DNA of 60,983 bases from an uncultured Spirochaetales bacterium (lineage in GTDB: Bacteria > Spirochaetota > Spirochaetia > SPDA01 > CAYXSD01): assembly GCA_964466335.1 (NCBI GenBank), contig CAYXSD010000003.1:37450-98432 (forward strand). Reading direction: 5' to 3'. A model generated the notes under the pieces. That model did no database searches. It saw only the letters and a program-made list of their open reading frames with translations, and had not been told where the DNA came from. This document shows, piece by piece, positions 3,001-55,606 of the stretch. Each line of letters starts with the position of its first letter. Within the stretch, counting starts at the first letter, position 1. The position numbers were made by a program, and so were the translations under genes.

Positions 3001-3615
3001 CTCACCTTTTCCAGATCGCTCCGGAGAAACGCCTCCAGTATAGAGGATACCTACCGCTGGGGGACTGAGCTGCGAACTTCGGCGGTTAATCTCTTTGGCA
3101 GCCAGGGGGCCTATTCAATAACCCCAGTCTTCGATTCAGATGAGTACAGCACATCCATTGGGCTCGATGTTACTTCAACGGACACTTTCTTCTTCAAAGA
3201 AGTTGAGTTGATCCTTCAACACTATCTTGCCTTCTACAAGGGGAATACCCATGAACTGAGTGTGGAAAATCGATTCAGCCAAACCTGGGCATCCCACATA
3301 TACGCGACAAATAGAACCGACATTGGTTTTCTTTGGTCCATTTTTCCTGAGGCCCCCATTGTATTTCCCATTTTCAAAAAAATCTTGAACAAGGGATACA
3401 TACGAAATGGTGAGTACCTCGATTGGGTCCTGGAACCCTACACGGAGAATAAAGACAAATATGGTTTCAGCCTTCTCCTGCGGCACGAGACCGGACTTGT
3501 TTTTCCTGATATTGGGGATATGACCGCGCATATTTCCGTAGGTTTCGACCGCATGGTAGAAGAGCTCTCCATTCTTGGGCTTCAAATAGGCATTTCCGCA
3601 CGTTTCCAATTTTAA
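1..3615 (+). CDS. SprA/Sov-like large outer-membrane protein, 5'-truncated (frame +1 is open from base 1)
   Basis: No stop in frame from position 1. Ordered motifs resemble T9SS SprA: IPGSVSVKRNG..DFEVNYESGQVSFL, RGKLIY, RPGPY, EWAG..LTFYW, LHIGAVSEDLDGDG, SEDFNDNG, WKRVTID, EQQVL, SQYRKLSMYLR. The C-terminus is beta-rich and ends ARFQF. The coding call is secure; the product call is from remembered motifs. Confidence 0.6.
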   Translation, partial: REIKNRYPFVETKPELYGPYRETRESRVEDLLTIRVLVPVEGYSLEPNLIPGSVSVKRNGRKATDFEVNYESGQVSFLGYIHPNDRIEISYQTVGTSKGGDIVFGFGNRFHLGPNLFLDAAAGLRWNILSGTYSTEERQHPGSVLATAALDYSTESLKARLDTGLSISTPDTTGRFRVLGMESQGLKVPISDSSIFPASPSSITGAIFARNVRGKLIYKDYRSYSPLGGATLNAYTWDPPDDQIYPYQTGSRPGPYTALPDTSIIDGEVMVLEYDLSANEWAGAFLPVIPGEEGVDLSGFDSLTFYWKSLDETGTVDHHLHIGAVSEDLDGDGNIDRENSVYSRGFDFNDSANGAVLLVGGGPDLTGNRSLESEDFNDNGILDGDEDDFTVSDAIPVTPEEQWKRVTIDFSEADKEKLISSRGLRLYIEETAGASASGRLIVSGFTFQGSPMVLDETPTGSIEETQDLIVIREISEGFSLNQPPELLTSVYPEVQENFHPQDTEQQVLEVNWDSSGGTTNTLLLIKGYTSPVPASQYRKLSMYLRVPTLSNPGATTMTVSLTGSDGEGIKAAFTPPQFDDWRKLTINLDSREVTLGGETLSGSTVTYTGTKGTLSLFSIRMDGSNSGTIYIDEVHCEDSLVNLGFGAAGSVEYKRPGKLLYTPELEILSDIRIFQEASFSTEDFAAGYLDQGGPLTTRSYTELEGILLYTRLRMELGILYAEPDLFLSGGHSLTIPAFPFPVTFTDSYSQRDDPGGITMSRSNLIGINIPGGNIVEFTQESSLLTSTLNQAWELKYSTDWEVPFSISLIGSLGTANKNWPLLAENYFANWILGYSLFAPVKIDKFRERRGNTLYSLSLTTLPVGASLSFDLGYSVAGEQEREHSSKGAIDVSIPLQFLQETPAAWSLTPGYRRSFSYTRAAEAPGTFGDDFYLLYSGFGVQEYIYNTWPMAELFSQRTEDLFISSSQGYEAAHFTPSFYMDYNRRYGSNLYDLFLPSTVSLTFSRSLRRNASSIEDTYRWGTELRTSAVNLFGSQGAYSITPVFDSDEYSTSIGLDVTSTDTFFFKEVELILQHYLAFYKGNTHELSVENRFSQTWASHIYATNRTDIGFLWSIFPEAPIVFPIFKKILNKGYIRNGEYLDWVLEPYTENKDKYGFSLLLRHETGLVFPDIGDMTAHISVGFDRMVEELSILGLQIGISARFQF

Positions 3616-3726: not shown

Positions 3727-5181
3727 ATGATTAGGCTTATTAAACATATTTGTATTCTTTGTTGTTTCATCCTTTTAGTAACGGCCCTTCCCTCCTTTTC
3801 CCAGGAAATTGACACAGGCGAAGGGGAGAATGAGTCCATTGAGGAAGAAAGCAGGACTGATGAAACCCCAGATGAAATGGAAGAAGATGAGAAAGGCCCG
3901 GAATTTGCCTTTGGTCTCGATCTTGTATTGGGTGCGGAAATATTCAATATTCCCGATTCGGAGGAACAGATTACCTGGCAGAAACTGGCACTCCTTCCGG
4001 ATTTTTCCATTGGTAAGTTTGGAATCGGTATTGATCTGACACTTCATTTTCATTTTACCGGCGGTCCCGGAAATGACCAGTTCGAAGTTCGAAAGGAGGA
4101 CTGGGTACCCGATGAAAATACCTCGTTCTTGGAACTCTATCTTCCAAAGTTTCGTTATATCAGATACGGCGAAAAGGGCGACCCCCTCTATGTAAAACTA
4201 GGCTCTATAGACGACGCTGTCCTGGGAAACGGGTTTATAATGAACAACTACTCCAACACCCTCTTCCTCCCGGAAAAAAGGATTTTCGGTTTGAGCTTCG
4301 ATTTCGATGGAAAAGTTTTCTCCTTTCCCTACTTGGGGATAGAGTATTTTATCGGAAACCTCGCTGTTTTCGACATAATAGGGGGACGAATCTATACAAG
4401 GCCCTTTGCCGGGTTAGAAGTCCCGGTTATTAAGGAGCTTCAGTTAGGCGCTAGTGTTGCTGGAGACAGAGCGCCCTACCATCACTCTGAATTGGACAAT
4501 CCGGAAGCCTCTGTCCTTATTTTCGGATTTGATACTCGAATACCAATTCTATCGGGAGATATCTTTTCATTAGCCGCCTTCGGCGATATTGTGTTTCAAC
4601 CGGGTACTAGAGGCGGAATGATCGGCCTTGGTGGAAGACTATTTTCGATTGTTACCTATGGCGCCCAGATCCGCTTCTTGGGAGAGAATTTTCTCCCCAC
4701 CTATTTCGATGCCACCTATGACCTTTTCCGAGTGGATAAATACCTCATTACCACAGGAAGCGGGCAGACCATACCGCCATATACCGGATGGTACGGTTCA
4801 CTGGGTTTGTCCTTACTGGAAGACCAACTCGTCTTCCGTGTCAGCATGGACGGACCCTTTGGGTATCCCGTTGCTCACAGCATAAACGGCATTCCACCGG
4901 AAGATAATTACGTTAACTACCCCCACTTACGGGCAATCTTTCTCCTTAATCAGGATGTTATTCCAAGTTTCTTTTTCGATATAAGTTACGACAAGAAACT
5001 CATTCGAAACTTTGCCGACTTAGTCAGCCCGGAACAATCTGTTATTACCGCCAAGCTCAACTACAAAGCCGGCGCAGCGGTTATTTCCTTTATCTACTCT
5101 CTTCGTTACAATCCGGATGCCCCGGGAGAGAACTCCTGGGAAACCACTTCCGGACTGCAGACGAGTATCAGTCTTTTTTAA
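3727..5181 (+). CDS. Predicted outer-membrane beta-barrel protein, unknown family
   Basis: N-terminal signal peptide, acidic linker, amphipathic beta-strands and terminal ...TSISLF. RBS GAGGGGG upstream. Paralogous to the C-terminal domain of the next gene. Confidence 0.65.
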   Translation: MIRLIKHICILCCFILLVTALPSFSQEIDTGEGENESIEEESRTDETPDEMEEDEKGPEFAFGLDLVLGAEIFNIPDSEEQITWQKLALLPDFSIGKFGIGIDLTLHFHFTGGPGNDQFEVRKEDWVPDENTSFLELYLPKFRYIRYGEKGDPLYVKLGSIDDAVLGNGFIMNNYSNTLFLPEKRIFGLSFDFDGKVFSFPYLGIEYFIGNLAVFDIIGGRIYTRPFAGLEVPVIKELQLGASVAGDRAPYHHSELDNPEASVLIFGFDTRIPILSGDIFSLAAFGDIVFQPGTRGGMIGLGGRLFSIVTYGAQIRFLGENFLPTYFDATYDLFRVDKYLITTGSGQTIPPYTGWYGSLGLSLLEDQLVFRVSMDGPFGYPVAHSINGIPPEDNYVNYPHLRAIFLLNQDVIPSFFFDISYDKKLIRNFADLVSPEQSVITAKLNYKAGAAVISFIYSLRYNPDAPGENSWETTSGLQTSISLF

Positions 5182-5193
5182 GGAGGACCTCAT

Positions 5194-7455
5194 ATGAAAA
5201 GAATGGTAACGTACATACTGTGCCTCAGTCTCTTCGTGTCGGCACTTGGTTTTGCTCAAACAAGTGAGGCCCCCTACGTGGTATTGGAATACTATACCAA
5301 TGAAAATGAACTTAGAATTCTAACCTCCCAAGGTGAAGAACTTTCTCCCTTTTTTGGAATGGATATCGCTCCCGGAGACACCATAATAACCGGCGCCTCC
5401 CTTGCGGAGCTTCGTTTGGAACCGAACGGTACCATCATAAAGATCTCTCGAAACACGGAATTCTTAATTGAAACCCTCCAGGGTCCCGAGTACAACGTAA
5501 ACGCCTTTTCCATGCTTAGTGGTAAAATCAGGGCCATTGCCGCGAAGAGCGGAGGAAAAGATAATTACTCCTTTGTTACACCCAGTGCGGTGTGCGGTGT
5601 GCGGGGGACAGATGTTTGTCTCTATGCCGAACCGGAAGAGATAGATACCGCCGCTGTTTTAGAGGGAGAGGTTAATTTCATCAATGTTAATACCGGAGAA
5701 AGTCTAACCCTTACAGAGAGAACAAAGGCGAATGTCTTCGCCGATACCTTTTCAGCTCAACCTCTTTCGGAAGAGGAAATGCTCACCCTCTTCAGCGATT
5801 TGGAATTCGAACGTCTTAAACCCAGCAATGTGCCGGGCAATGAAAACAGGGAAGACCCCATAAAAGAGCTGAGAGAGAAAAAGGAGCAGGAGACACTCAC
5901 CGAGGAAAAACAGAAAGAAGAAGAAGAGGATGATGATAATGATGAACAGCCGAAAGCTGAACAACCTGAACTAACTAAAGAGGATACCGAAAAAGAAGAA
6001 AAACCCAAAGAACCGGATTTTTTCGATAATCTCCTTAAATTTCTCGGATTTGAAATCGGAACCCTTACCGTTGACAACAGCACCTACGCCAAAGCGGTAG
6101 TACAACCCAAATTCGAAATTGGCGATTTCCGATTAGGGCTCTATCTGCCGGTGATCTATCAGGACGATTTATTCTCTCCCCAGGACTGGTACCATCCCAA
6201 GGGTAACAACGAGTGGTCCTTCGGTACGGATCAATCAGGCACCCTGAATATTCTCTATGATATTGCGGGAGACCTCTTGCTCAAAATCAAATACATGGAA
6301 TACGGAGAGCAGCGGGACCCGTTCTTTTTTACATTGGGGAATATATCGAGTATTACCATCGGACATGGCATTATTATGCGTAACTACGGAAATGATTCCG
6401 ATTTTCCAGCAGTAAGAAGAATCGGGTTAAACCTTGGGGTTACCACTTCTTTCTTCGGCTTTGAAGGCGTCGTAAACGATTTTGCCGACTTAGAGATTTT
6501 CGGCGGGCGGATCTTTTTTAAACCAATTGGAGACAGTTTTCCTATGGCCATTGGTGTTTCTTCCGTACTCGATCTCTATCCTTCAATGGGAATACCCCGA
6601 AACGAAGGCGAGACCCTTTCCACCCTATACGGGGACCCCATCTTCATTAACGGCGGACTGGATATCGATTTTCCCATTCTGGAAAGCGATACTTTCAGTC
6701 TCGTTTTTTTCGGTGATATAGCCGCTATGCTGCCCTACTTCAGAGAAAATGAGAGTGCCTTTAACATTCGCCGGGGATTTGCCTTAGAAGCCCTCTTTCC
6801 AGGAGGGGTTGTAAATCTGTCCAAACTGAGAAACTACGGATGGTCCGCGGGGGCCTTCGGGAATATCTTTATTGTTGATTGGAGACTGGAGTACCGAAAC
6901 TATCGCGGGACTTTTAAGCCTTCCTTCTTCAATAACACCTATTCCAGGGTTCGAGGACAGTATGTTTTGAACACCGCGGCATATCTTGCTGATCCGGACG
7001 CTTCAGAGTGGGACAAACAGACTATGGGTATATATGGAGAAGCAGGGTTTACCATCGGCGATATATTCACTTTCACCGGCGGATACTTTTGGCCTTGGCA
7101 GGTAGGAAGCTCCGGGGTTGAAGCATTAGAGGAAGATTATTTTCTCCTTAAGCTTCGACTCCATCCCGATGTAATTCCTGTTGTCGGTATCCACGGCTCT
7201 ATCTCTTACGAAAGAACAGGATTTATACCTACCATTTTGCAGTCCGAGGGCAGTGAGGACCTGCTCCTTTTCGATGCCTATACCGTTGTAAAGGGTGAAG
7301 TGGTCATACCTTTAGGACCCAGCTTGGACCTTGCCACAGTTATTGCCACAAACGCTGTATATAACAGCGATGGAACTGTAAGGCGGGACCCGAACAACCC
7401 GACGATGATAAAAATCGCTCCCTCGGTTACTATTGAAACCCGAGTGAGTTTTTAA
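5194..7455 (+). CDS. FecR-domain protein fused to a predicted beta-barrel
   Basis: Signal peptide; FecR-like segment (GDTIITG..AELRL..GTIIKIS.NT, TPSAVCGVRGT, VLEGEV); acidic/charged linker; barrel domain ending ETRVSF. RBS AAGGAGG. Confidence 0.7.
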   Translation: MKRMVTYILCLSLFVSALGFAQTSEAPYVVLEYYTNENELRILTSQGEELSPFFGMDIAPGDTIITGASLAELRLEPNGTIIKISRNTEFLIETLQGPEYNVNAFSMLSGKIRAIAAKSGGKDNYSFVTPSAVCGVRGTDVCLYAEPEEIDTAAVLEGEVNFINVNTGESLTLTERTKANVFADTFSAQPLSEEEMLTLFSDLEFERLKPSNVPGNENREDPIKELREKKEQETLTEEKQKEEEEDDDNDEQPKAEQPELTKEDTEKEEKPKEPDFFDNLLKFLGFEIGTLTVDNSTYAKAVVQPKFEIGDFRLGLYLPVIYQDDLFSPQDWYHPKGNNEWSFGTDQSGTLNILYDIAGDLLLKIKYMEYGEQRDPFFFTLGNISSITIGHGIIMRNYGNDSDFPAVRRIGLNLGVTTSFFGFEGVVNDFADLEIFGGRIFFKPIGDSFPMAIGVSSVLDLYPSMGIPRNEGETLSTLYGDPIFINGGLDIDFPILESDTFSLVFFGDIAAMLPYFRENESAFNIRRGFALEALFPGGVVNLSKLRNYGWSAGAFGNIFIVDWRLEYRNYRGTFKPSFFNNTYSRVRGQYVLNTAAYLADPDASEWDKQTMGIYGEAGFTIGDIFTFTGGYFWPWQVGSSGVEALEEDYFLLKLRLHPDVIPVVGIHGSISYERTGFIPTILQSEGSEDLLLFDAYTVVKGEVVIPLGPSLDLATVIATNAVYNSDGTVRRDPNNPTMIKIAPSVTIETRVSF

Positions 7456-7469
7456 ATACACTGTACTGC

Positions 7470-9281
7470 ATGATTGAGATCCTAAAAGGCGAGGTTGCAA
7501 GGAAAATAGCCGCCGGCGAGGTAATAGACAGGCCTTACGCGGTTACCCGGGAACTCTTGGACAATGCCATTGACGCGGGAGCGGATAAAATAGATGTTTC
7601 TCTTTTCAAGGGAGGCATCGGAGAGACCCGAGTAACCGATAATGGTACCGGCATGAGCCGGGAAGACCTCGAAATCTGTTTCCTTCCCCACGCTACCTCC
7701 AAAATCCAAGAAGCGGAAGACCTCTATACAATACATACACTTGGGTTTCGTGGAGAGGCCCTCTCAAGTATTGCTGCCACATCCCGGCTTGAAATAATAA
7801 GTAAAACTGAGGATGCTGATTCTGCCTTTAAACTTGTAATTCGGGAAGGATTAATAGAAAGCCTTTCCCCCGCCAAAGGGAAACCCGGCACTACCGTCTC
7901 TTCTAAGGAGTTGTTTTACTCCGTTCCCGGCAGACGCCGTTTTTTAAAATCCTACTCCGCGGAAGCAACAATGAGTAGAAATGTCTTTATTGAAAAGTCC
8001 CTGCCCTTTCCTGCTATATCCTTTAGACTCTTCGTTGAAGACACGAGTAAACTACAGCTCTCTCCTTCCAGTCTTAAAGAGCGGGTACTCCAGGCTTTTC
8101 CGGGCAAATTTGAGCCTTCTCTTCTTTTAAAAGAGGAATTTCAATTTCCCGAGTTTTCACTTCAGATAATCCTCGGCAGCCCTGAGCTTATACGAAGGGA
8201 CCGTCGCTACCTCTACACCTACGTAAACAAAAGAAGAGTGCAGGAGTATTCCCTTCTCCAAGCAGTAGAGTATGGATATAAGGAATACCTCCCCGGGGGT
8301 TCCCACCCAATATGCTTCGTTTTTCTTGAAATAGACCCGGAATATGTAGACTTTAATATTCACCCCGCGAAAAAAGAAGTGCGTTTTCGAAACCTTCCCG
8401 AGGTGCACCATCAGCTTGTAGGCGCCGTACAAAGCATGCTCTCCCGCCGCTATCGTGTGGAGGGAAGAATCGGTGAAGAAAGACATACTAGACCAACTAT
8501 GGGGGGTTATACAGTACAGGAAACGCCTTCTAATCCGTTACACCATCCTCCCCGGCAGCGCCAAAAAGGAGAAGAAACCAGATTTGATTTTCCCTTCCAT
8601 GAGATCAGCCTTCTCCATCGCAAAGAAGAGGACTACGCCCATCCTAAGCCTTCTCCCAAAACAGGTCTAACCGCAGCCGGTCAGTTTGCGAAAGAGCCTC
8701 TAGCCGGAGAGCCTCTATATGAGACTTTATCTTCCAAAAGCCCTCTATACTTAGGACAGATTTTTTCACTCTTTTTGCTCGCGGAGTATGAAGATCGACT
8801 TTACATTATAGATCAACATGCCGCCCACGAAAGGATTATCTATAATGAGCTTAAAAAACAGGGTAAAAACCAGCAATCCCTCCTCTTCCCACTGGAGTTC
8901 TGCTTAGAAGAGGATGAACACCGCTGCTTTATTGCCACTTTAGATGCCTATGAAACCCTTGGATTCACCTTTAAAGAGAAAAACCCGGATAAAAGAACAT
9001 GGGAAATAACCTCACTCCCCGCCTTCTGCACAGATAAAGAACATATAGTTATAGAATATGTAAAACAAAAGAGAGGAAAACCGGAAAACCTTGAGCAGGA
9101 AATCTTAGCTGAAATCGCCTGTAAGGAGGCAATTAAGGACGGAGAGCAATTGGATCCCAAAACGGGGTCCGCCCTTGTCCGTTCCGCCATAGATCTGCCA
9201 CAGCCTCGTTGTCCCCACGGTAGACCGATCTGGTATGTTCTTTCCAGGGAGGACCTCTTCTCTTTGGTAGCTCGAGAATAA
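7470..9281 (+). CDS. mutL: DNA mismatch repair endonuclease MutL
   Basis: IAAGEVI, ELLDNAIDAG, TLGFRGEAL, DFNIHPAKKEVRF; endonuclease motifs DQHAAHER, ACK and CPHGRP. Confidence 0.97.
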   Translation: MIEILKGEVARKIAAGEVIDRPYAVTRELLDNAIDAGADKIDVSLFKGGIGETRVTDNGTGMSREDLEICFLPHATSKIQEAEDLYTIHTLGFRGEALSSIAATSRLEIISKTEDADSAFKLVIREGLIESLSPAKGKPGTTVSSKELFYSVPGRRRFLKSYSAEATMSRNVFIEKSLPFPAISFRLFVEDTSKLQLSPSSLKERVLQAFPGKFEPSLLLKEEFQFPEFSLQIILGSPELIRRDRRYLYTYVNKRRVQEYSLLQAVEYGYKEYLPGGSHPICFVFLEIDPEYVDFNIHPAKKEVRFRNLPEVHHQLVGAVQSMLSRRYRVEGRIGEERHTRPTMGGYTVQETPSNPLHHPPRQRQKGEETRFDFPFHEISLLHRKEEDYAHPKPSPKTGLTAAGQFAKEPLAGEPLYETLSSKSPLYLGQIFSLFLLAEYEDRLYIIDQHAAHERIIYNELKKQGKNQQSLLFPLEFCLEEDEHRCFIATLDAYETLGFTFKEKNPDKRTWEITSLPAFCTDKEHIVIEYVKQKRGKPENLEQEILAEIACKEAIKDGEQLDPKTGSALVRSAIDLPQPRCPHGRPIWYVLSREDLFSLVARE

Positions 9282-9282
9282 C

Positions 9283-11202
9283 TTAAGAGGCAAGGAGTTC
9301 CTTCACCTCTTCGGCTTTTTTATAATCCGGGTTCTTTTCCAAAAGAAGAGAGAGAATCTGCTTCCCCGCTTCTTCGTTCCCATCTTTTATAAGAAGGAGT
9401 CCCTGCTGATAATAAGCGTCCCAAAAACTTGGTTCAATTTTTATCAATGTTGTTAAAGCCTTTTGGGCTTCCTCGAAGTTGCTATTCTCTATGTAAGCCA
9501 GGGCTTGATTGTACCGGATCTCAGGATCATTAGGTGAAACTTCAATGGCCTTTGCGTAATGCTTAACACTCTCTTCGTAAAGACCGAGATGAAGATAAGC
9601 GTTCCCTAAATTGTTGTTCACTTCCAGGGCATTGGGATCTATTTTATATGCCTCCACAAGAAATTTTCTCGCCTGTTCGTATGACTCTTCTTCAATGTAA
9701 ATAACACCGAGATTTATAAGGGGTTTTATATAATTCGGGTCCGCTTTTATGGCCTGCATATAGGCTTTCTTTGCAGCTTCCCCGTTTCCGGTGGCTTCGC
9801 TTGCCTCTCCCAGCGTATAGAGATAGGAAGGAGAAGCAGGATGTAAGCTCACTGCCTTTGCCGCATAGGGAAGTGATTCGTTTGATTTGTTAAGTCTCAG
9901 TTTTGTCTGCGCCATATTGTAGTTAAGGACTGCATCTTCCGGCTTCATATCCAGGGCCTTACCGAAGTATGTCTCCGCTTGTTCGTAACGCTCCATTCGA
10001 AAGTAGACGGTGGCAAGCTTAGCTGCAAATATGGGTTGATTTGGATTTAGATCATAGGCCTTTTTATAGGCCTCCGCTGCTGAGCGAAAGTCGCCCAGGT
10101 CCTTCTGAGTTTCGGCCAACTGATAGTAGGCCAATTCAAACTGAGGATCCATGGCGACCGCCTTTCGAAAGGCTGAAGCTGCCATTTGAAGTTGACCCAA
10201 CTTCTGCAGTGTCCTGCCAAGACGGTAGTGGGCATTTGCATAATCTCCTTTCTGATGTATGGAACCTTCAAAGGACTGTCTTGCCGATTCGTACTTTTTC
10301 TGATTGTACTGGACCACGCCCAGGTCGTAGAGGAGGAGGTAATCATCGGGATTCAGCCGTACCGCTTCCTTTAACTCCTTTTCGGCATTCTCGTAGTTTT
10401 TCGCGTCTTTGTAGATTTGCCCTAAGGTATTGTGGGGGACCCAAAGATTTGGGTCCTTCTCTATCGCTTTATTCGAGTAGAGGATTGCCTGTTCGATTTT
10501 CTTCGGGTTTTCATTGTCCTCCAGATAGTAGGATTCTCCGAGTCTCGCATAAGCCTCCGCGGAATCCTTATCAATGGATAGGGCCTCCTGAAAAGCCTCT
10601 CGAGCATCCTCGTAGTTGCCCTTTTGGATCTCCGATACTCCCTTATCAATGAGTTTCCTCACTTCCTCCGCTTTCTTTCGCTCTTCCTCATTCAAAGCAG
10701 CCAGTCTCTCTTCCTCCGCCTTCTTGTCCTTTTCGGATTGTCCGCGAATTGCCCGCTCCTGAGAGGAACCGCCCAACTCTTCCAAACTCTTTTGGAGGGC
10801 CTCCTGTTGCTCCTGTGTCTCCTTTTTCTCCTTCTCTTCCCTTGCAGTTTTTATATCGATGATTTCATCTCTGAGTTTTCGAGCTTCATCATCATCCACG
10901 TCTTCAATAAGAAGCCTGTCCAGCAGATCTAATGCCCTCTGATACTCCCCGTTCTCCATATAATCTTTCGCAAGACGGAGGGTGTTTCTTCTAATTTTCT
11001 CTTGCTCCGTAAGTCCGGCTGGTTCTTCTTGTTCCGCGCCCTGGGATGCCGTTTCATCTTGGGCCTCCCCGGTTTTTCCTTCGGTTCCGGAAAGCAATAG
11101 AATCGCAACAATGCCGAGAATGATAATAACAGCCGCCGCGGCTATAATTATGATTATGAGGTTTTTATTTTGTTTGTTATTTTCCTTATTCATCCAATTC
11201 AA
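9283..11202 (-). CDS. Membrane-anchored TPR protein (Lmp1-like)
   Basis: N-terminal hydrophobic anchor, coiled-coil and about a dozen TPR repeats. ATG at 11193 is an alternative start. The position tail-to-tail with mutL recalls Borrelia lmp1/mutL. Confidence 0.8.
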   Translation of the reverse strand: MNWMNKENNKQNKNLIIIIIAAAAVIIILGIVAILLLSGTEGKTGEAQDETASQGAEQEEPAGLTEQEKIRRNTLRLAKDYMENGEYQRALDLLDRLLIEDVDDDEARKLRDEIIDIKTAREEKEKKETQEQQEALQKSLEELGGSSQERAIRGQSEKDKKAEEERLAALNEEERKKAEEVRKLIDKGVSEIQKGNYEDAREAFQEALSIDKDSAEAYARLGESYYLEDNENPKKIEQAILYSNKAIEKDPNLWVPHNTLGQIYKDAKNYENAEKELKEAVRLNPDDYLLLYDLGVVQYNQKKYESARQSFEGSIHQKGDYANAHYRLGRTLQKLGQLQMAASAFRKAVAMDPQFELAYYQLAETQKDLGDFRSAAEAYKKAYDLNPNQPIFAAKLATVYFRMERYEQAETYFGKALDMKPEDAVLNYNMAQTKLRLNKSNESLPYAAKAVSLHPASPSYLYTLGEASEATGNGEAAKKAYMQAIKADPNYIKPLINLGVIYIEEESYEQARKFLVEAYKIDPNALEVNNNLGNAYLHLGLYEESVKHYAKAIEVSPNDPEIRYNQALAYIENSNFEEAQKALTTLIKIEPSFWDAYYQQGLLLIKDGNEEAGKQILSLLLEKNPDYKKAEEVKELLAS

Positions 11203-11977
11203 GCTCCCCCTCCAGCTCCTGAATATCCTCTGATTCCGCGGATAGAGACTTGGTATCGCTGGAAGCCTGTTCGAGAGCGCCTAGGACTTCATCCAACAGT
11301 GCCTCCTGTCGTTTCTTCTCTTCTTCCGCCTTCCGTTTTTCTTCTTCCAATCGTTTTTTTTCTTCTTCTTCCTTACTCCGCTCTTCCGCCAAACGTTTCG
11401 CTTCTTCTTCTATTTTTTTCTGTTGTTCTTCTGTAATCCTTTGTTCTAGAATTGCTATCACTTTTTCTATTTTACTCTTCTGAGAATCCAGAGGTTTAAG
11501 AACGATATACCGCTTATAATCCTTTAGCGCTTCTTGGCGTTTCTGCAGTTTCATGTAAGCGTTTGCCCGGTTGAGTAATGCGTCCGCCCTTCCGGGTTCT
11601 TCTTTCAGGGATCTTGTATAGGCATTCACCGCCTCATCATATTTTTCGAGGGCAAAGTAATTATTCCCAAGATTAAAGAGGAACTGGCTGTCCATTGAGT
11701 CTGTGACCTCAATTCCCGCCTCTAATATAGAGATGGCCTTTTCATGGTCCCCCAACTGTTCATAGACAATCCCAAGGTAAAGATATACCTTTTCGTTTGC
11801 GGGGTCCTCATGTATAGCAGCTTCAAGCATGGTTGCCGCTTCTTTGGGTTTGTTTTTCATGAACAGCTCTTCCCCTCGCTCGTAGAAGGACTCTCCGTAT
11901 ACCCAAAAAATACCACTAAAGAAAAGAAAAGTAAGGAAACATGCGAAAATAATTAGGTTTTTTCTCGTAATAATCAC
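11186..11977 (-). CDS. Exported TPR protein with C-terminal coiled coil
   Basis: Signal/TM segment, 3-4 TPRs, E/K-rich coiled coil and acidic tail. Overlaps the next TPR gene. Confidence 0.8.
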   Translation of the reverse strand: MIITRKNLIIFACFLTFLFFSGIFWVYGESFYERGEELFMKNKPKEAATMLEAAIHEDPANEKVYLYLGIVYEQLGDHEKAISILEAGIEVTDSMDSQFLFNLGNNYFALEKYDEAVNAYTRSLKEEPGRADALLNRANAYMKLQKRQEALKDYKRYIVLKPLDSQKSKIEKVIAILEQRITEEQQKKIEEEAKRLAEERSKEEEEKKRLEEEKRKAEEEKKRQEALLDEVLGALEQASSDTKSLSAESEDIQELEGELELDE

Positions 11978-12014
11978 CTCATTTCATTTTATTTAATTTT
12001 CGTCAGCTGCTTTA

Positions 12015-12053
12015 GATTTTATATTTCATTATAGCATAATGAAATATAAAATC
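12015..12053. repeat. Perfect 18-bp inverted repeat in a divergent promoter region
   Basis: GATTTTATATTTCATTAT-AGC-ATAATGAAATATAAAATC. Contains an extended -10 (TGcTATAAT) on the minus strand. Confidence 0.9.
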
Positions 12054-12088
12054 GACCCACCATTGACCCTCCGAAAAATGGTAATTTT
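12027..12088 (+). repeat. Dispersed ~62-bp intergenic element, copy 1
   Basis: CATTATAGCATAATGAAATATAAAATCGACCC-N15-AAAAATGGTAATTTT. Matches 42295-42357 on the minus strand. Confidence 0.8.
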
Positions 12089-12113
12089 AAGAGAGGTTCC
12101 GTGACTTTTGGGT

Positions 12114-12142
12114 TTGACAGTCCTGGAAAAACAAATTAATCT
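12114..12142 (+). promoter_or_regulatory. sigma70-like promoter
   Basis: TTGACA-17 bp-TAATCT, 17 nt upstream of ATG 12160. Confidence 0.55.
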
Positions 12143-12159
12143 ACCTATTGGAGATTAAT

Positions 12160-13539
12160 ATGTCAACGGTCCTTATTCTAATTATAATACTCGGTTCCGG
12201 AGCCGGCATTTTAACCTTTTTTATTATAAAAACTGTGCTTCAGCCCAAAAGGGTCGCCACTCTGGCGAATTTACTAAAACAGGGTAAATACTCAGCAGTC
12301 GTACGAACGGCAAAGCAGATCCTGGCAAAAGAACCGCGTAATTCGGAAGCCCACTATCTTATTGGAAAGGCTTATATGGGGGACAACAAACCTGAATTGG
12401 CCCTAATGGAGCTGCAAACAGTAAATGAAATTGGAGATTTCGGGGGAGCTTGCCCTGAAATTGAATTTCGAGAGACCATTGCCGGTCTATTCGAACGTTT
12501 TAAACAACCCGAAGAAGCCTTGAAGGAGTACCTTCTTCTATTAAAGAAGGACCCGGGGAACCCTGAATATTACTTTAAATCCGGTGAATTCTTCGAGGCG
12601 AGGGACAAATCGGAAAAGGCGGCGAACTATTACAGAAAAACAATCGAATTAGACCCGCGCTATGGGATGGCCCACTTCCGACTAGGACAGATTCTTTACC
12701 GGGCAAAAAAACCGGTGGAGGCCAGGGCTGAATTGGAAACGGCTATTAAAATCCTTCCTGAGAACTATAATGCGTATTTCTACCTTGGTAGATTAGTAAA
12801 GGAAAGCCACGACTACGCCACGGCCCTACACCTCTTTGAAAAGGCCCAGCGGGACCCGGAGCTAAAGGTAAAAGCTCTTGTGGAACGCGGCGGGTGCTAC
12901 ATGAATATGAAAAGTTTCGACAGCGCCATTAGTGAACTCGAACGTGCCCTTAAACTCTCTAACAACGACAGCTCTCCGGAAACCCTCTACGGACGTTACT
13001 TTCTCGCTGCCTGCTATGAGAATAAACGGCAAATAGATAAGGCAATAGAACAGTGGGAAGCAATTTATAAAAAAAAGTCGTCCTTCCGGGACGTAGCCGA
13101 AAAGCTCAGTCAGTACCAGGAACTCAGACAGGATGACCGCGTGAAAGATTATTTAACCGCAGGCATGGAAGAGTTTTATCAGATCTGCAAAGACATTACC
13201 GTAGCGCTTAACCTGGGTGTTCGTGATTTGACAAATATACCTAATGGATGCCAGATCGTCGCTGTAGAAGCCGAATCGAAGAAGTGGCTTAACGCGAGGA
13301 AGATGCCCACACTCCTTTGGTTTCTTCGTATACCGGACATTATTCCAGAATCGACAATACGAAACCTCCACGAAGAAATGAAAAAATTAAATGTTACCAG
13401 AGGAGCACTGATTGCGAGTTCTAACTTTCATCGTAAAGCTGTGGAATACGCGGAAACCAGGCCAATCAATCTTTTTAACCAAGAAAAATTACAAAAATTA
13501 CTGGAGAAGGCGGACTCCCTTCAGAAGTCTTCACGATAA
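12160..13539 (+). CDS. Membrane-anchored TPR protein with C-terminal degenerate Mrr-like (restriction endonuclease fold) domain
   Basis: ATG at 12160 after GGAG; N-terminal TM; multiple TPRs. The C-terminal GALIASSNF..A..YAETRPINLFNQEKL resembles the end of Mrr_cat. Confidence 0.75.
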   Translation: MSTVLILIIILGSGAGILTFFIIKTVLQPKRVATLANLLKQGKYSAVVRTAKQILAKEPRNSEAHYLIGKAYMGDNKPELALMELQTVNEIGDFGGACPEIEFRETIAGLFERFKQPEEALKEYLLLLKKDPGNPEYYFKSGEFFEARDKSEKAANYYRKTIELDPRYGMAHFRLGQILYRAKKPVEARAELETAIKILPENYNAYFYLGRLVKESHDYATALHLFEKAQRDPELKVKALVERGGCYMNMKSFDSAISELERALKLSNNDSSPETLYGRYFLAACYENKRQIDKAIEQWEAIYKKKSSFRDVAEKLSQYQELRQDDRVKDYLTAGMEEFYQICKDITVALNLGVRDLTNIPNGCQIVAVEAESKKWLNARKMPTLLWFLRIPDIIPESTIRNLHEEMKKLNVTRGALIASSNFHRKAVEYAETRPINLFNQEKLQKLLEKADSLQKSSR

Positions 13540-14223
13540 ATGAAATTTTTATGTGTTTCCGATCATCGAGACCCATTAATTTACACTAATTCAATTAAAC
13601 AACGATTTAAAGACATTAGTTTTGTTCTCGGTGCCGGCGACGTTGAACTCCCATATTACGGATTTATTGTTTCCTCGCTGAACAAACCCTTGGCCTTTGT
13701 TTTTGGAAATCATAACTTAGGTGAATTTAAGAACTATCGAAAGGAGTACAATGATTCAGGTGAATGCATAGGTACAAGTTGTATCCCCAGGAAATCTTAC
13801 GGTTCTATATACATTGGCGGCAAAGTAAAAACCATAAACGGCATTATTATTGCCGGTCTTGGGGGAAGTATGAAATACAATAACGGCCAAAATCAGTATA
13901 CTGAATTGGGTATGTTCTTCTTCATGTTACGTCTCTTCCCTAAACTACTCTTTAACAGAATCTTCAAGGGACGGTTTCTGGATATTCTACTAACCCACGC
14001 ACCGCCATTTGGCATCCATGACAAACCTAATGACAGATGTCACCGTGGTTTTAAGGTTTTTCTCTGGTTTATGAGGAAATTCAAACCAAAATACTTGATA
14101 CACGGACATATTCACCTATATGATATGAACGCTAAGCGGGTCTCTTACTATAAGAACACAACCATTGTAAATTGTTATGGACACGTCCTGTTAGAAATAG
14201 AGGATAAACATGCACACTGTTAA
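13540..14223 (+). CDS. Calcineurin-like metallophosphoesterase
   Basis: SDH, GAGD, GNHN, LTHAPP and HGHIH motifs. Confidence 0.9.
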   Translation: MKFLCVSDHRDPLIYTNSIKQRFKDISFVLGAGDVELPYYGFIVSSLNKPLAFVFGNHNLGEFKNYRKEYNDSGECIGTSCIPRKSYGSIYIGGKVKTINGIIIAGLGGSMKYNNGQNQYTELGMFFFMLRLFPKLLFNRIFKGRFLDILLTHAPPFGIHDKPNDRCHRGFKVFLWFMRKFKPKYLIHGHIHLYDMNAKRVSYYKNTTIVNCYGHVLLEIEDKHAHC

Positions 14224-15133
14224 TGTAGACCAACAAGCGAAGGATGATTTTAATAAAGTACGAAAACAGGAAGTCATTCAAAAACTGTTTACCCTCCTTA
14301 ATCCTGAAAGACATGAACTTCTCTCCTTCGAAGAGGTACGTAAGCTTATAAAACCGCGGGGAGAATCCTATAGGGGAATGCAGGTTATTCCCATTTCCAA
14401 GATTGTCGGTAGCGAAGGGCGCTACAGAGATTTCAGCAAAGCTTTTCTCCCCAGAAAAGACTATATGCGGGGCAGATGGGAAAACATCGACCGCGCGCAT
14501 CTAAGGGATGTTTTTCTTCCTCCAATTAAGCTGTATGAAGTTGGAGGTGTCTACTTTGTACGAGACGGTAACCACAGGGTCTCTGTTGGCCGGTCCCAAG
14601 GGGTTGAGGCGATAGACGCGGAGGTTACAAGCCTCTCAAGTCATATCACACTGAATTCGGAAATGACCAAAGAAGACCTTAAAAGGGCCGTAATAGAATA
14701 TGAAAAAAAATGCTTCTACCAAGCTCATACTATTTCAGACATTGTTCCTCCAGATGAACTGACTTTTACCGCCACAGGTCGTTACGATGAGGTCAAAGAG
14801 CATATTCTTATTCATAAGTACTATCTTAATGAAAACCGGAAGGAAGAAATTTCTTTCAAAGAAGCGGTTCGGTCATGGTATGGAAATCTCTTTTACCCAA
14901 TAATAAAAACAGTTGAAGAAGAGAATATTCTTACCAGATTCCCTGGACGAACAAAGGCTGATCTCTATGTTTGGATAATTAAACATTGGGATGAATTAAA
15001 AAAGAAATACGGAGATGATCTTTCAATTCAAAAAGCAGCAGTGGATTTCTCCGAAAAATACGGAAAGAGCTTACTCAGACAATTTGTTGACACCATAAAG
15101 AACAGAATATTCTCTAAAAAAAATCGGCAATAG
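14210..15133 (+). CDS. ParB/Sulfiredoxin-like domain protein with helical C-terminal (DUF4032-like) region
   Basis: PPIKLY..YFVRDGNHRVSV motif. Overlaps the phosphoesterase gene by 14 bp. Confidence 0.75.
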   Translation: MHTVNVDQQAKDDFNKVRKQEVIQKLFTLLNPERHELLSFEEVRKLIKPRGESYRGMQVIPISKIVGSEGRYRDFSKAFLPRKDYMRGRWENIDRAHLRDVFLPPIKLYEVGGVYFVRDGNHRVSVGRSQGVEAIDAEVTSLSSHITLNSEMTKEDLKRAVIEYEKKCFYQAHTISDIVPPDELTFTATGRYDEVKEHILIHKYYLNENRKEEISFKEAVRSWYGNLFYPIIKTVEEENILTRFPGRTKADLYVWIIKHWDELKKKYGDDLSIQKAAVDFSEKYGKSLLRQFVDTIKNRIFSKKNRQ

Positions 15134-15863
15134 GATAGGGACCGGAACAGAGGAAGAAGCCATACCCCGGGTCTTTACCACAGATCCAGAAATATTCTGA
15201 GGTTTCTATTTCCCTTTGTCTTCGCTTAAGAAGGTCCTCAAAAAACCGCGGTCCGAAGGAGTTCGTCTCTTCCAAGAAGACAAAGCTGCCGTCTTTCCCG
15301 TAAAAACGCAATTCCCCCATCTCCTGGGAAACAGAAAAAACAGGCCCTCCCTCTTTTTTGTTAATACCCGGAAAATCCACCTCCTCTTCCCTAAGGAGAG
15401 GTGCGTTTATATACAAAGAATACTCACTTCGTTCTCCAGCCTTATCAACCGCAACTACCCTTATCTGACCGCGGGGTACATGTGTCCTCCTTGGAAAGAC
15501 AAGACTGTTTGATCCGATCCAAAGCTCATCCTGCTGCTGATGCAGCACCCAATTCTCCTCTGTTATTCTCCAAAAAAGTTCAGCTTCGTCGAAAATACAG
15601 TAGAGTTCAACAATATCATCATCGCCATCTTCATCAATAATGTGAGCAAAGAGAGAGAGGGTTTCATAGTATTTTCCTTTTACCTCATCTCTTACAAGAT
15701 TTATCTGATAGTACACCTCGGGAATTTCCGGAGGATGCTCATTACAGCTTGCCAAAACAAGGAACAAAAAAAGAAAAAGCAATAGGTACCAAAAAGAAGA
15801 ACATCGGCGCTCTCCGGTTCTTCTGCTATTCCTGATAGCCTTAACGATTAACAATTCTACCAT
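15114..15863 (-). CDS. Hypothetical lipoprotein
   Basis: Basic N-region, hydrophobic stretch and lipobox LASC. Start position is uncertain. Confidence 0.7.
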   Translation of the reverse strand: MVELLIVKAIRNSRRTGERRCSSFWYLLLFLFLFLVLASCNEHPPEIPEVYYQINLVRDEVKGKYYETLSLFAHIIDEDGDDDIVELYCIFDEAELFWRITEENWVLHQQQDELWIGSNSLVFPRRTHVPRGQIRVVAVDKAGERSEYSLYINAPLLREEEVDFPGINKKEGGPVFSVSQEMGELRFYGKDGSFVFLEETNSFGPRFFEDLLKRRQREIETSEYFWICGKDPGYGFFLCSGPYPIADFF

Positions 15864-16479
15864 CCTCCGTTTCTTCGATTATTCCATCCAAACGCATCTT
15901 TTTAAAGAGGGGAATCAAAAATCGTCGGGTATATCCAAGCTTTTCTCTTACCTCCTGAAGGTAAATCTTATCTCCTTTTCGCTTATTGCCAAGAATACAG
16001 TCTACTAATTCTCGGTATTTAGCCGGGGAACAACAGATCCTGTCATCACAAAGGATTAGCAGCTCTAATCGACTTAAGGCACGATATCCTTCCTTTTTTT
16101 CACTATGGCCTAGATGGTATATGTCTAGAATGCCCTGAAAATCTGTTTCCAAGGTTATCAACATGGTACGTAGATAGGGAGGGAGATATTTTTTGAGATC
16201 TAGGTCCAAAGCCCCATGCACAAGCACACTGCCCTTTTTAAGCGAGGGCAACTGTGGTCCAACTGTTTTAAGTACAGCTGCCGCGCTTTGTTCTTCTCCC
16301 GGCGGAAAAACATCCAACACTTCTAAGGTGAACCCTTCGGGTAGAAGATAGACTGTATCACCCTTTTTTATGCCCTCGACCGATTTCCAAGGGCAAATGA
16401 ACCGACACATCCTTTTATTCATATTTGTCAGAGCATCATTTTCTCTATAATGGGAAAGTATCTTTATGGGTCCTTTCAA
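15841..16479 (-). CDS. SelB-like protein lacking the GTPase domain (EF-Tu domain II-like barrel plus C-terminal winged helix)
   Basis: IKKGDTVYLLPEG..V and LKKGSVL resemble domain II. EVREKLGYTRRFLIPLF..GII..EDGRIV resembles the terminal SelB winged helix. Confidence 0.6.
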   Translation of the reverse strand: MKGPIKILSHYRENDALTNMNKRMCRFICPWKSVEGIKKGDTVYLLPEGFTLEVLDVFPPGEEQSAAAVLKTVGPQLPSLKKGSVLVHGALDLDLKKYLPPYLRTMLITLETDFQGILDIYHLGHSEKKEGYRALSRLELLILCDDRICCSPAKYRELVDCILGNKRKGDKIYLQEVREKLGYTRRFLIPLFKKMRLDGIIEETEDGRIVNR

Positions 16480-17609
16480 CCCGACAACGCCTCTCGGTTA
16501 ATTACTGGATTGGCATAGATGAGCATCGCCTTTCTCATCGTATTTTCTGAAAGATCGGCAAACCTATTGAGAAAACTATTCTTTTCCTTCTCTGAATACT
16601 GGTCCTTATATTTTTTTGATGTATGAAACACGTCATAGGCAATGTAGTTACTAGGCCATAAGCGATATATGGAATGAATACATCTGTCTATTGCATCAGC
16701 TACTTGAGGCACTCCTTCCCATACGCCGTGAAGAGGTTTTCCAAAAGCAAGATGTACCCTTCCCTTAAATCCTTTAATACCCTGTATTATTGCCTCTACA
16801 TCCTCGTTTTCAGCTTTTTCGTACGTGCCGGTCTCCTCCTTGATGGTAAGCTCCCTTGCTTTCATTGTATCGCAAGGATCATACTCGTAGGAAACTGCAA
16901 CCGGAACAATCCTGCATTGGTTTATAAAATCAGAGAAATTCAGGCCTTTTTTCCTTTGTGAAAGAAAGAGCATTTTAATAAGGGAAGGATTTGTTCTATC
17001 ATCACCGTCCTTTGCCCTTCCTTCTCGCTGTGCTATCCATACCCCGTTACCCTGGGAGAGGGTGTGCCAGATATACCTGGAGAGCTGATAAGAGGCCTTT
17101 ATGCGTTCCCGAAAGGGAAGGTTCCGCTTTACAATGAATCCTCTGTTTACCCGTATCAGATCTCCTACTAAATCGTTCATGAGTAGATTGTCCCCGAAGG
17201 ATATCTCAGGGGGAGTAATCTTCCTCTCCATAAGGATATGGCCGACAAGGGCCGCGTCCATGACAATATCTCTATGATTAGAGATGAACAGCTTTGACAT
17301 CTCCATTGTCGCGTATTCCAGGCCGGAGATACTCAAAGTTTCAATACTCCCAGGGACTATCCGATCAAGGATTTCTTTTTTAATAATTCCCTGTTGTAAT
17401 TCAACCCTGGTTTTCACCTTTCTCAGTTTGAGCCGCAGATAGAGAGAAAGGATATACTCCAAGGGTTTATTTACAAAGGGCGGACATTTTGGGCACACCA
17501 CTTCCCGAAGAGTTTCAAGGAGAACGCGGTCTCGAAGAAGTCGATGCAGAACATCCGGCAATTCTTCATCTGTATAGGGCCGTATATCTTCAAAGGATGA
17601 ATAGTCCAT
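16476..17609 (-). CDS. Glycerolipid acyltransferase (PlsC superfamily)
   Basis: SNHRDIVMD (HxxxxD), WIAQREGRAKDG, IVPVAVSYEYDP. Confidence 0.88.
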   Translation of the reverse strand: MDYSSFEDIRPYTDEELPDVLHRLLRDRVLLETLREVVCPKCPPFVNKPLEYILSLYLRLKLRKVKTRVELQQGIIKKEILDRIVPGSIETLSISGLEYATMEMSKLFISNHRDIVMDAALVGHILMERKITPPEISFGDNLLMNDLVGDLIRVNRGFIVKRNLPFRERIKASYQLSRYIWHTLSQGNGVWIAQREGRAKDGDDRTNPSLIKMLFLSQRKKGLNFSDFINQCRIVPVAVSYEYDPCDTMKARELTIKEETGTYEKAENEDVEAIIQGIKGFKGRVHLAFGKPLHGVWEGVPQVADAIDRCIHSIYRLWPSNYIAYDVFHTSKKYKDQYSEKEKNSFLNRFADLSENTMRKAMLIYANPVINREALSG

Positions 17610-37521: not shown

Positions 37522-39036
37522 TTAAAGAAATTCTTTTTCTAAGAATTCCAAATCCAACTCGGGATACACAGGATATGAATCCAGAAGCTCTCCGACCTCT
37601 TGATTTATCCTCTCCTGAACGGACCTGGGAATATTGAATTTGCTGCGGCTTTCCTCGCCCTTTCGCTTTCCTGTCGTTAACGTTATTGGTGTAATGTTGG
37701 AGAGAACGTCCTTTAATAATCGAGCAATTCCTCGCATTTCATCCCTTCCCATTCCAAGAGTAGTCACTGCTGGGGTCCCTACCCTTAATCCGCTGGTATA
37801 CCAAGGTCCATTTGGATCGAAGGGAAGTGAATTCCTGTTCAGGGTAATCCCGCAGAGTCTCATGGCGTCCTCTGCTTGCCTGCCCGTTACCCCGTAAGGC
37901 CTAACATCAATGAGAAAGAGGTGGTTATCCGTCCCGCCAGTGGCAATGGTCATGCCCAGACGCTTGCACTCTTCCGCCATGGTCCTGGCATTATCTATAA
38001 TCTTTCTACTGTAAGCCTTAAACACTTCCGTCTCCGCCTCAGCGAAGGCGACAGCTTTAGCCGCCAATACATGTGGAAGCGGCCCGCCGATTACCATAGG
38101 ACAGCCCTTGTCAATTGCCTCTGCAAATTCCTTTTTCGAAAGGATTATTCCTCCTCTCGGCCCCCTTAGCGTTTTATGGGTGGTACTGGTAACTACATGA
38201 GCGTAGGAAACCGGGTCAGCTTCTCCGGATATAGCACCACCGGCAACCAAACCGCCGAAGTGGGCCATATCAGCCATAAGTACCGCGTTCACCTCATCCG
38301 CGATTTCTCTCATTTTTCTGAAATTGATAAGTCGAGGGTAGGCGCTGTAACCGGCAAGGAGAACTAAGGGCTTAATTTCCTTGGCCATATTCCGTATTTC
38401 TTCGTAATCAATAAGACCAGTTTCTCTGTTTACTCCGTAGGTGTAAGCCTCGAACATGTGTCCCGAAACGTTGGCCCTGTACCCGTGAGTAAGGTGCCCG
38501 CCCGAATAGTAGCCCATTCCCAATAATTTTTGGTTTCCGGTTATTTTCCGTATTTTCTTCCAGTCTTCCAGACTGAGATTGGCCGGATTTAATTCGCCGA
38601 GCTTTTCCAAAGCCGGGACCTCCACTCGGGTATGTATTATTGCCCAGTAGGCCATGAGATTGGCGTCAGCGCCGCTATGGGGCTGAACATAGGCGTGTTC
38701 AGCATTAAATAGTTTTTTTACCAGATCAACGGCACGCTTTTCAATGAAATCAACATTATCACAACCGGCATAAAATCGATGATACGGTGAGCCTTCAGCG
38801 TATTTATCCGTTAATAGGTTGGCCATAGCCATCTGTGTAGCATAAGATGAGTAATTTTCGCTGGCAATAAGCTTAAGATACCCTCGTTGGTCCTGCAGCT
38901 CTTTCACAATGGCCGAAGCGATTGCCGGATTCTGAGCCGCGATGTTACAGAGGTTTGATAAATACCCAATAAATGCGGTATTTACCCCGGAAACATCCCG
39001 GTCTTCTAAGTATCGATGCAATGCGGTACAACCCAT
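37522..39036 (-). CDS. glyA: Serine hydroxymethyltransferase, long form
   Basis: LIASEN, KYAEG, VQPHSGA, GGHLTHG, STTHKTLRGPRGG, SGLRVGTP. Confidence 0.97.
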   Translation of the reverse strand: MGCTALHRYLEDRDVSGVNTAFIGYLSNLCNIAAQNPAIASAIVKELQDQRGYLKLIASENYSSYATQMAMANLLTDKYAEGSPYHRFYAGCDNVDFIEKRAVDLVKKLFNAEHAYVQPHSGADANLMAYWAIIHTRVEVPALEKLGELNPANLSLEDWKKIRKITGNQKLLGMGYYSGGHLTHGYRANVSGHMFEAYTYGVNRETGLIDYEEIRNMAKEIKPLVLLAGYSAYPRLINFRKMREIADEVNAVLMADMAHFGGLVAGGAISGEADPVSYAHVVTSTTHKTLRGPRGGIILSKKEFAEAIDKGCPMVIGGPLPHVLAAKAVAFAEAETEVFKAYSRKIIDNARTMAEECKRLGMTIATGGTDNHLFLIDVRPYGVTGRQAEDAMRLCGITLNRNSLPFDPNGPWYTSGLRVGTPAVTTLGMGRDEMRGIARLLKDVLSNITPITLTTGKRKGEESRSKFNIPRSVQERINQEVGELLDSYPVYPELDLEFLEKEFL

Positions 39037-55595: not shown

Positions 55596-55606
55596 TTATT
55601 CCTCCA

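Follow-up and report, generated by a model that had tools for sequence, protein, structure and literature searches.

Can a protein that carries the terminal winged helices of SelB and no GTPase domain be anything other than debris of an elongation factor? The question is raised by a 212-amino-acid (aa) open reading frame (ORF), here called mini-SelB, in the genome of an uncultured Spirochaetales bacterium (GenBank assembly GCA_964466335.1). The ORF lies in a stretch of 60,983 nucleotides of contig CAYXSD010000003.1 (positions 37,450 to 98,432, forward strand), the whole of which is referred to below as the window; all coordinates are positions in it. An earlier note, made from the letters of this DNA without database searches, described the ORF as a stand-alone protein in which a barrel resembling domain II of EF-Tu and SelB is joined to the last winged helices of SelB, and proposed that it binds RNA hairpins, either as a competitor of SelB or as a regulator unrelated to selenium. 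Our analysis leads us to regard mini-SelB, with a probability of about 0.6, as a domain-reduced orthologue within a spirochaetal family of GTPase-less SelB paralogues, and as a putative GTP-independent binder of nucleic acid.

The gene occupies 15841..16479 on the reverse strand, begins with TTG and ends with a stop codon at 15841-15843. These coordinates, as given in the note, are exact: assemblies of microbial-mat metagenomes from JGI, ENA, NCBI and Logan carry the same call at equal length. MAG GCA_963992545.1 and a bin of ERZ1757541 are among the carriers of this short form.

Results

Evidence that the C-terminal half of mini-SelB derives from SelB came firstly from an exhaustive phmmer search of 1.84 billion protein representatives. 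This returned 24 further proteins at E <= 1e-3 (best 7.8e-10), all of which align to mini-SelB residues ~81-212. The matches are of two types: C-termini of proteins of ~580-640 aa with GTP_EFTU, GTP_EFTU_D2 and SelB-wing_3 domains, that is, canonical SelB, and shorter proteins with SelB-wing_3 alone. The matched proteins themselves carry SelB-wing_3 at 32-51 bits, which lends the homology transitive support. By phmmer, hhalign, HMMER and alignment, residues 93-211 (15847..16203, reverse strand) form a tandem winged-helix module homologous to the third and fourth winged helices of SelB (WH3-WH4; domain boundaries after PMC4605307), and on this point the note was right. The Pfam profile SelB-wing_3 (PF09107), which it named as a check, does match the WH4 core at residues 170-209 (15853..15972, reverse strand), at a score (E 0.0025, 17.8 bits) below the gathering score of 23.2 bits.

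Conserved features of the module point the same way. In an alignment of mini-SelB with eight full-length SelBs, the Moorella 1WSU sequence and the family members described below, mini-SelB and the SelBs have in common the L-S/P-P start of WH3, an R-x-L-x-R-L helix, the S/T-R-K/R-Y/F-x-I/L-P-L-L/F motif of WH4 and a terminal R-I/V-V strand. The counterpart of the SelB WH4 motif S-R-K-Y-x-I/L-P-L-L is TRRFLIPLF (residues 184-192; 15904..15930, reverse strand). The WH3-WH4 region of mini-SelB is basic (isoelectric point, pI, 8.9) and in this resembles canonical SelBs, in which WH3 and WH4 contact the RNA of the selenocysteine insertion sequence (SECIS) (PMC4605307).

The GTPase, by comparison, is absent. 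Neither a Walker A nor an NKxD motif was found in mini-SelB, Pfam GTP_EFTU does not match it, and the protein opens directly with the barrel-like segment, in agreement with the claim that there is no P-loop. With neither a G domain nor domain III (D3), a role as a tRNA-delivering elongation factor is impossible. Nor is the gene in selenium company: it is not adjacent to selA, and a Pfam survey of the large ORFs of the window, together with annotated copies of the locus, revealed no selA, selB, selD, grd (glycine reductase) or fdh (formate dehydrogenase), as the note had stated for the sel genes. No tRNA gene, including tRNA-Sec, was found in the 61-kb window, no Rfam family matched there, and tblastn of SelB and SelB-like queries against it returned the mini-SelB ORF as the sole match.

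The best phmmer match (P0002, 426 aa) is likewise a protein without a GTPase domain. Its family (P0002 and P0026-P0045) comprises 21 clusters from metagenome-assembled genomes (MAGs) of Spirochaetaceae and Spirochaetales, labelled 'SelB C-terminal domain-containing protein' by NCBI; among GTDB species representatives this long form was found in three MAGs only (Spirochaetales or Spirochaetaceae). GCA_016936555.1 and GCA_024449685.1 are among the MAGs that carry it. Our family alignment (A2) contains 20 clusters of 416-431 aa, one 292-aa partial sequence being left out, and no member of the family has a GTPase domain. Mini-SelB is SelB-derived and devoid of a G domain, as described, but it is not an isolated protein: it is an orthologue of this spirochaetal family.

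What the long form consists of was approached by structural modelling and by profile comparison. A confident AlphaFold2 model of P0002 built from the 20-sequence alignment (mean predicted local distance difference test score, pLDDT, 86; predicted template modelling score 0.74) consists of two beta-barrels, at ~18-93 and ~99-183, and then four winged-helix units. Known SelB structures include 4ZU9 (Aquifex aeolicus), the C-terminal fragments 1LVA, 1WSU, 2PLY and 2UWM of Moorella thermoacetica with or without SECIS RNA, and 5LZB (E. coli SelB on the ribosome). Foldseek placed full-length SelB 4zu9 at the top of the PDB (E 4e-17, 456 columns), followed by 5lzb_z (E 5e-15) and then by 1lva, the Moorella WH1-4 fragment; at lower ranks stand many EF-Tu structures with ~200 aligned columns, a length that fits the barrels of domains II and III (D2-D3). 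Profile comparison matched family barrel 1 to SelB D2 (93%, E 3.7e-7), family WH2 to SelB WH1-2 (94%) and family WH3-4 to SelB WH3-4 (99.7%, E 1.4e-25). The family profile also matches PDB entries 1wsu, 1lva, 2ply and 4zu9; a direct search of the PDB with the mini-SelB sequence gave no matches. On the strength of model and profiles, the long-form family is SelB minus domain I, with the predicted order D2-D3-WH1-4. Canonical full-length SelB genes are found in related Spirochaetaceae MAGs, including PWNW01, the gcvPB of which is 61% identical to that of the window; selenocysteine is thus in use in the clade, and a spirochaetal selB is the probable source of the paralogue.

The relation of mini-SelB to this family is evident from both sequence and position. 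Compared with the family, mini-SelB scores 98% probability in hhalign (E 2.9e-13), and HMMER with the family profile (full-sequence E 4.1e-22) aligns residues 93-211 to family residues 302-419 at 62 bits (E 1.7e-21). Counterparts in mini-SelB are limited to family residues 26-88 and 302-419; the ~213 residues between (~89-301), which comprise D3, WH1 and WH2, are absent, and a linker of only ~5 residues joins the barrel-like segment to WH3. The loci of the family have a common order: the SelB-like gene and an overlapping lipoprotein gene, then convergent genes for a ~300-aa protein, a metallophosphoesterase and a TPR+Mrr_cat protein, further on a TPR and a ~650-aa protein, and finally, on the opposite strand, MutL and a FecR-domain protein. 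Every family locus examined has the overlapping pair, and contigs long enough to include the later genes show these too; the P0002 contig (L081) stops just past the lipoprotein gene. Gene order across 5194-16479 of the window is the same, with the shared syntenic block at 5194..15133 (FecR-domain, MutL, ~640-aa TPR, TPR, TPR+Mrr_cat, metallophosphoesterase and a 307-aa protein). It follows from this conserved order that the 212-aa ORF is the positional orthologue of the ~425-aa gene.

Divergence within the block is uneven. By tblastn against the long-form locus L083 the 307-aa protein, metallophosphoesterase, TPR-Mrr protein and MutL are 42-55% identical, the lipoprotein 31% and the C-terminus of mini-SelB 27-30%; identity of mini-SelB to the long form overall is 27-34%, compared with the 42-55% of its neighbours. 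The possibility that the ORF is a recent fragment of a full-length selB is contradicted by its identity of 24-34% to any SelB or relative and by the lack of any other SelB-like remnant in the window. Synteny breaks directly upstream of the gene: in long-form loci pth lies there in divergent orientation, in some cases accompanied by an N6-methyltransferase gene, and in the window lineage the place is taken by a same-strand run of gcvH-gcvPA-gcvPB-acyltransferase. In L081, L083 and L087 (~7926-9915) a fused N6-methyltransferase/Eco57I/TaqI_C protein, resembling type IIG enzymes, is encoded divergently upstream of the SelB-like gene and before pth; of the four long-form lineages examined, three have it and L085/L086 lack it.

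The N-terminal half of mini-SelB is the more difficult part. A putative small beta-barrel derived from domain II of SelB or EF-Tu would span residues 22-87 (16219..16416, reverse strand), with support that is weak to moderate. With the family profile, HMMER aligns residues 22-87 to family residues 26-88, that is, to barrel 1 (pairwise E 0.0078), while hhalign aligns the SelB-D2 profile to residues 37-85 with a score of 23.7 (probability 25%), which none of 300 shuffles reached (mean 10.4, standard deviation 2.2, maximum 18.2). The hhalign score against family barrel 1 is 20.7, reached by 1 of 300 shuffles, and the register agrees with that of HMMER. Scores against eight other segments (SelB D1, D3, WH1-2 and WH3-4; family barrel 2, WH1, WH2 and WH3-4) range from 8.6 to 13.5, the N-terminal signal being specific to D2/barrel 1 among the ten segments compared. 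MAFFT independently aligns mini-SelB residues 19-56 to family residues 27-66; its placement of residues 57-82 on family residues ~179-208 (VFP..PSLK) was not reproduced by HMMER or hhalign and was not adopted.

Mini-SelB sits in an operon-like run of gcv genes, acyltransferase, mini-SelB and lipoprotein in which start and stop codons overlap, as the note had recorded for the two genes on either side. The upstream neighbour, a PlsB-like acyltransferase gene (16476..17609, reverse strand), is the last in the gcvH-gcvPA-gcvPB-acyltransferase run and marks the synteny breakpoint relative to long-form loci; its stop codon and the mini-SelB start share the TTGA at 16476..16479 (reverse strand). Downstream, the lipoprotein gene (15114..15863, reverse strand; lipobox LASC) overlaps the 3′ end of mini-SelB by 23 nucleotides (nt) if counted from the ATG at 15863, or by 14 nt from the TTG at 15854, the start called in other assemblies. 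The overlapping codons suggest translational coupling. Six protein variants of mini-SelB are known, 91-100% identical and all 212 aa long, and across variants the frame, the length and both overlapping junctions are conserved. The first codon is TTG in all three distinct DNA versions (window, L089 and L092); Met20 and Met24, considered as internal starts, were rejected, neither being conserved among the variants. Translation from codon 1 is thus the best reading.

The overlapping lipoprotein gene was considered as a functional partner, but this idea is weakened by its distribution. In other lineages the family follows an aminotransferase gene or a TK-like gene, the latter unrelated to the SelB-like family, and is therefore an unreliable guide to the target of mini-SelB. 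Locus scans based on the lipoprotein were also rejected, being saturated by the acidic DEDG pattern. The lipoprotein family (at least 54 clusters; L102, L103-L105) has no Pfam domain and a conserved ESLSLF..DEDG.DD..W, and its genes always lie a few nt behind, or overlap, the upstream gene, whether this partner is SelB-like, an aminotransferase or TK-like.

Other features of the window

Next to the lipoprotein gene, a trio at 12148-15133 encodes a transmembrane/TPR protein with a C-terminal Mrr_cat domain, the metallophosphoesterase and the 307-aa protein (the last with a weak DUF4032 match). The order of the trio is kept in L083, L085, L087, L089 and L092, across spirochaete lineages with identities of only 44-59%. 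For the metallophosphoesterase PADLOC gives a weak match to its candidate PDC-S10; mini-SelB, P0002, the 307-aa neighbour and the lipoprotein match no PADLOC defence-system model. Between the divergent genes for the TPR protein (11186-11977, reverse strand) and the TPR+Mrr_cat protein (12148-13539, forward strand), a perfect AT-rich inverted repeat of 18 bp with a 3-nt spacer (12015-12053) may act as an operator or terminate transcription in both directions.

Two long, near-perfect hairpins (39054-39096 and 39144-39188) occupy a 214-nt spacer between the genes for SHMT (37522-39036, reverse strand) and a cNMP-binding/HATPase protein (39251-40519, reverse strand). One has a 20-bp stem and a 3-nt loop, the other 22-nt arms that are 91% complementary and a 1-nt loop. 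They show no SECIS-like features, and may be the 'long intergenic hairpins' of the earlier note. The adjacent SHMT ORF (504 aa) matches the Pfam SHMT family in two stretches, best at residues 167-439, a split that suggests an N-terminal extension, an insertion or an over-long ORF call.

Elsewhere, 53088-57185 (reverse strand) holds an operon of McsA-like (UVR motif), McsB-like (ATP:guanido phosphotransferase) and ClpC-type AAA+ genes, a protein-arginine-kinase/Clp arrangement best known from Firmicutes. ORFs without a Pfam match at E <= 1e-5 lie at 28-3615 (1195 aa), 3727-5181 (484 aa), 40597-41721 (374 aa), 42612-45503 (963 aa) and 45508-46638 (376 aa); the 963-aa and 376-aa ORFs precede a tandem MptE-like/Maf-type gene pair (46643-49925).

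Discussion

A critical issue is what a SelB-derived protein without a GTPase might do. The ancestral form, of 416-431 aa, is SelB minus domain I, with D2-D3 barrels and four winged helices; from this the window lineage has lost ~213 residues (D3, WH1 and WH2), so that a putative D2-derived barrel remains, fused to WH3-WH4, by which SelB clamps the SECIS hairpin of the mRNA. The product would bind an RNA stem-loop through WH3-WH4 independently of GTP, and would act as a post-transcriptional regulator rather than as part of the selenocysteine machinery. Given that WH3-WH4 is kept and is basic as in canonical SelB, binding of structured RNA, such as a hairpin, without GTP is the most likely activity, as judged from sequence.

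Several observations weigh against this reading. In the N-terminal half neither GTP_EFTU_D2 nor any other Pfam family registers even at E <= 10, Pfam and NCBIfam find no match in the first 106 aa, and the hhalign probability of the barrel is low; a single-sequence AlphaFold prediction of mini-SelB (pLDDT 38) is uninformative, and the short-form N-terminus has no alignment depth. Of the domain II-like barrel of the earlier note there survives, then, a specific but weak D2 signal, not a Pfam match. In the WH4 wing the basic pair, K/R-R in canonical SelBs and E-R in long forms, is E-E in mini-SelB. Predicted RNA structure at the mini-SelB/lipoprotein junctions of five loci is no better than that of shuffles (z -0.4 to +1.2), and the upstream regions of four long-form genes hold no consensus structure. 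At 90% identity all known short forms fall into one cluster, seen only in microbial-mat and sediment metagenomes; a word-indexed protein search for close relatives returned mini-SelB itself only, and pattern scans of GTDB genomes and JGI metagenomes returned nothing. Thirteen DNA runs contain the locus, and no RNA-seq runs with it are listed. Finally, the ratio of nonsynonymous to synonymous substitution rates (dN/dS) of mini-SelB across three DNA variants is 0.40-0.47, compared with 0.06-0.18 for the acyltransferase, gcvPB and the 307-aa protein and 0.23-0.36 for the lipoprotein. The E-E pair, together with a dN/dS about three times that of the neighbours, counsels caution in assuming binding of the SECIS type.

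Some of these observations are what would be expected if mini-SelB were a decaying relic: a deletion or rearrangement would have halved a long-form gene, and a functionless 212-aa ORF would persist merely for lack of time. Decay would sit well with the elevated dN/dS, with the loss of the basic wing residues and with the confinement of the short form to a single cluster, as well as with the loss of D3, WH1 and WH2, a difference from every one of the 20 long-form relatives, the synteny break directly upstream and the fact that mini-SelB diverges fastest in the syntenic block. It sits badly with the state of the reading frame. Length, frame and TTG are identical in 3/3 DNA variants (synonymous divergence, dS, up to ~0.1), all six protein variants are of one length, and the start/stop overlaps are retained at both ends of the gene. 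The variable codons of mini-SelB comprise 23 nonsynonymous and 14 synonymous changes, an excess of the latter over the neutral expectation of ~3.4:1 (binomial p = 0.025). The open frame and TRRFLIPLF are moreover kept at ~70% amino-acid divergence from the long form, and a pseudogene so far diverged would not retain them. We take this, by a small margin, as a sign of relaxed purifying selection and not of a dead gene, and we consider decay unlikely. A constraint specific to WH4 is not supported: variability is lower at residues 143-212 (2/70 vs 21/142, p = 0.009), but synonymous changes are also fewer there (2 vs 12), so that selection is not separable from low mutational input.

A second alternative links mini-SelB to selenium: by competing for SECIS hairpins with canonical SelB, or by buffering these hairpins, it would tune UGA recoding. 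Its appeal is that WH3-WH4 is the SECIS-binding module of SelB (PMC4605307) and that canonical SelB is encoded in related Spirochaetaceae MAGs such as PWNW01. In the 61 kb of the window, however, neither selA, selB or selD nor tRNA-Sec was found, nor any gene recognisable as encoding a selenoprotein; the surroundings of the locus, and of the long-form orthologues, are genes of housekeeping type (pth, mutL, gcv) and not sel or selenoprotein genes; and the wing residues are unlike those of canonical SelBs. We find this explanation improbable.

Winged helices are most often DNA binders, and mini-SelB could in principle be a SelB descendant that regulates transcription, its barrel serving for oligomerisation or ligand binding; to this we give just as little credence, since the sub-threshold Pfam MarR, GntR and HTH matches to the same helices in relatives and the weak match of the family profile to GntR-family regulators in the PDB (3fms, E 6.6e-4) are offset by the facts that SelB WH3-WH4, which binds RNA, is the only significant match, that no DNA-binding family reaches its gathering score and that no palindromic operator was seen beside the gene, the nearest long inverted repeat being at 12015-12053.

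The domain-reduced SelB paralogue that we favour is best seen beside its relatives. It shares with the long-form family its chromosomal position, the overlapping downstream lipoprotein gene, WH3-4 homology, the register of the putative barrel and the lack of a GTPase; it differs in being half as long, without a D3-like barrel, WH1 or WH2, in its upstream neighbour and in the charge of WH3-4, most long forms being acidic there (pI ~5) and mini-SelB basic. Relative to bacterial SelB, the C-terminal 119 residues are homologous to WH3-WH4 and the N-terminal segment resembles domain II, whereas D1, D3, WH1 and WH2 are missing, the length is 212 rather than ~580-640 aa, and the WH4 wing pair is acidic.

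Loss of the SelB N-terminus appears to have happened more than once. P0020 (L100, 978-1586) is a complete gene of 202 aa that encodes SelB WH2-WH4 only; it belongs to an organism of 67% GC, lies inside its contig and not at the edge, and follows a ThiS-like gene; remnants of a SelB N-terminus were not found around it. Like mini-SelB it combines SelB C-terminal winged helices with the absence of a GTPase; unlike mini-SelB it has no barrel, and retains WH2-WH4 instead of D2 and WH3-WH4. Given the unrelated lineage and gene context, the N-terminal loss was probably independent. Some other short matches are probably contig-edge fragments. The converse is seen in the archaeal SelB-like proteins (aSelBL, or 'EF-Pyl'), which are also SelB paralogues outside selenocysteine decoding but have retained D2-D3 and the GTPase and are without the winged helices of bacterial SelB (PMC3037878), an opposite pattern of domain retention.

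For the mode of action proposed here there is a precedent in E. coli. SelB there autoregulates its own synthesis through a SECIS-like hairpin in the selAB leader, and in doing so its winged-helix module serves translational repression at an mRNA hairpin without selenocysteine insertion. The E. coli regulator is full-length SelB, with its G domain and tRNA-Sec, whereas mini-SelB has no G domain, and the gene junctions and upstream regions examined yielded no target hairpin for it. Domain II of both EF-Tu and SelB docks at the shoulder of the 30S subunit. A more speculative proposal is that GTPase-less SelB paralogues constitute a new class of GTP-independent translational regulators, in which the D2 barrel would rest on the 30S shoulder while WH3-WH4 clamps an mRNA hairpin at the mRNA entrance, so pausing or repressing selected messages independently of selenocysteine. 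As a specific scheme this is a long shot; were it true, mini-SelB would be the minimal functional core of the mechanism.

Among elongation factors, SelB is the textbook example of one that recognises a structure in the mRNA, and here is a conserved bacterial family that keeps all of its domains but the GTPase. The family is named in databases, and no published description of it was found in the searchable literature; what is known of SelB evolution has a real gap here. Should the short form prove to be decaying, it would represent ordinary gene erosion at a rearrangement breakpoint. As a domain-reduced orthologue, mini-SelB is a natural minimal version of the family, in which D3, WH1 and WH2 were dispensable and a D2-like barrel and WH3-WH4 were kept. 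If the family binds RNA hairpins, then a recoding factor would have been turned into a plain regulator, and mini-SelB would offer a compact, natural hairpin-binding module.

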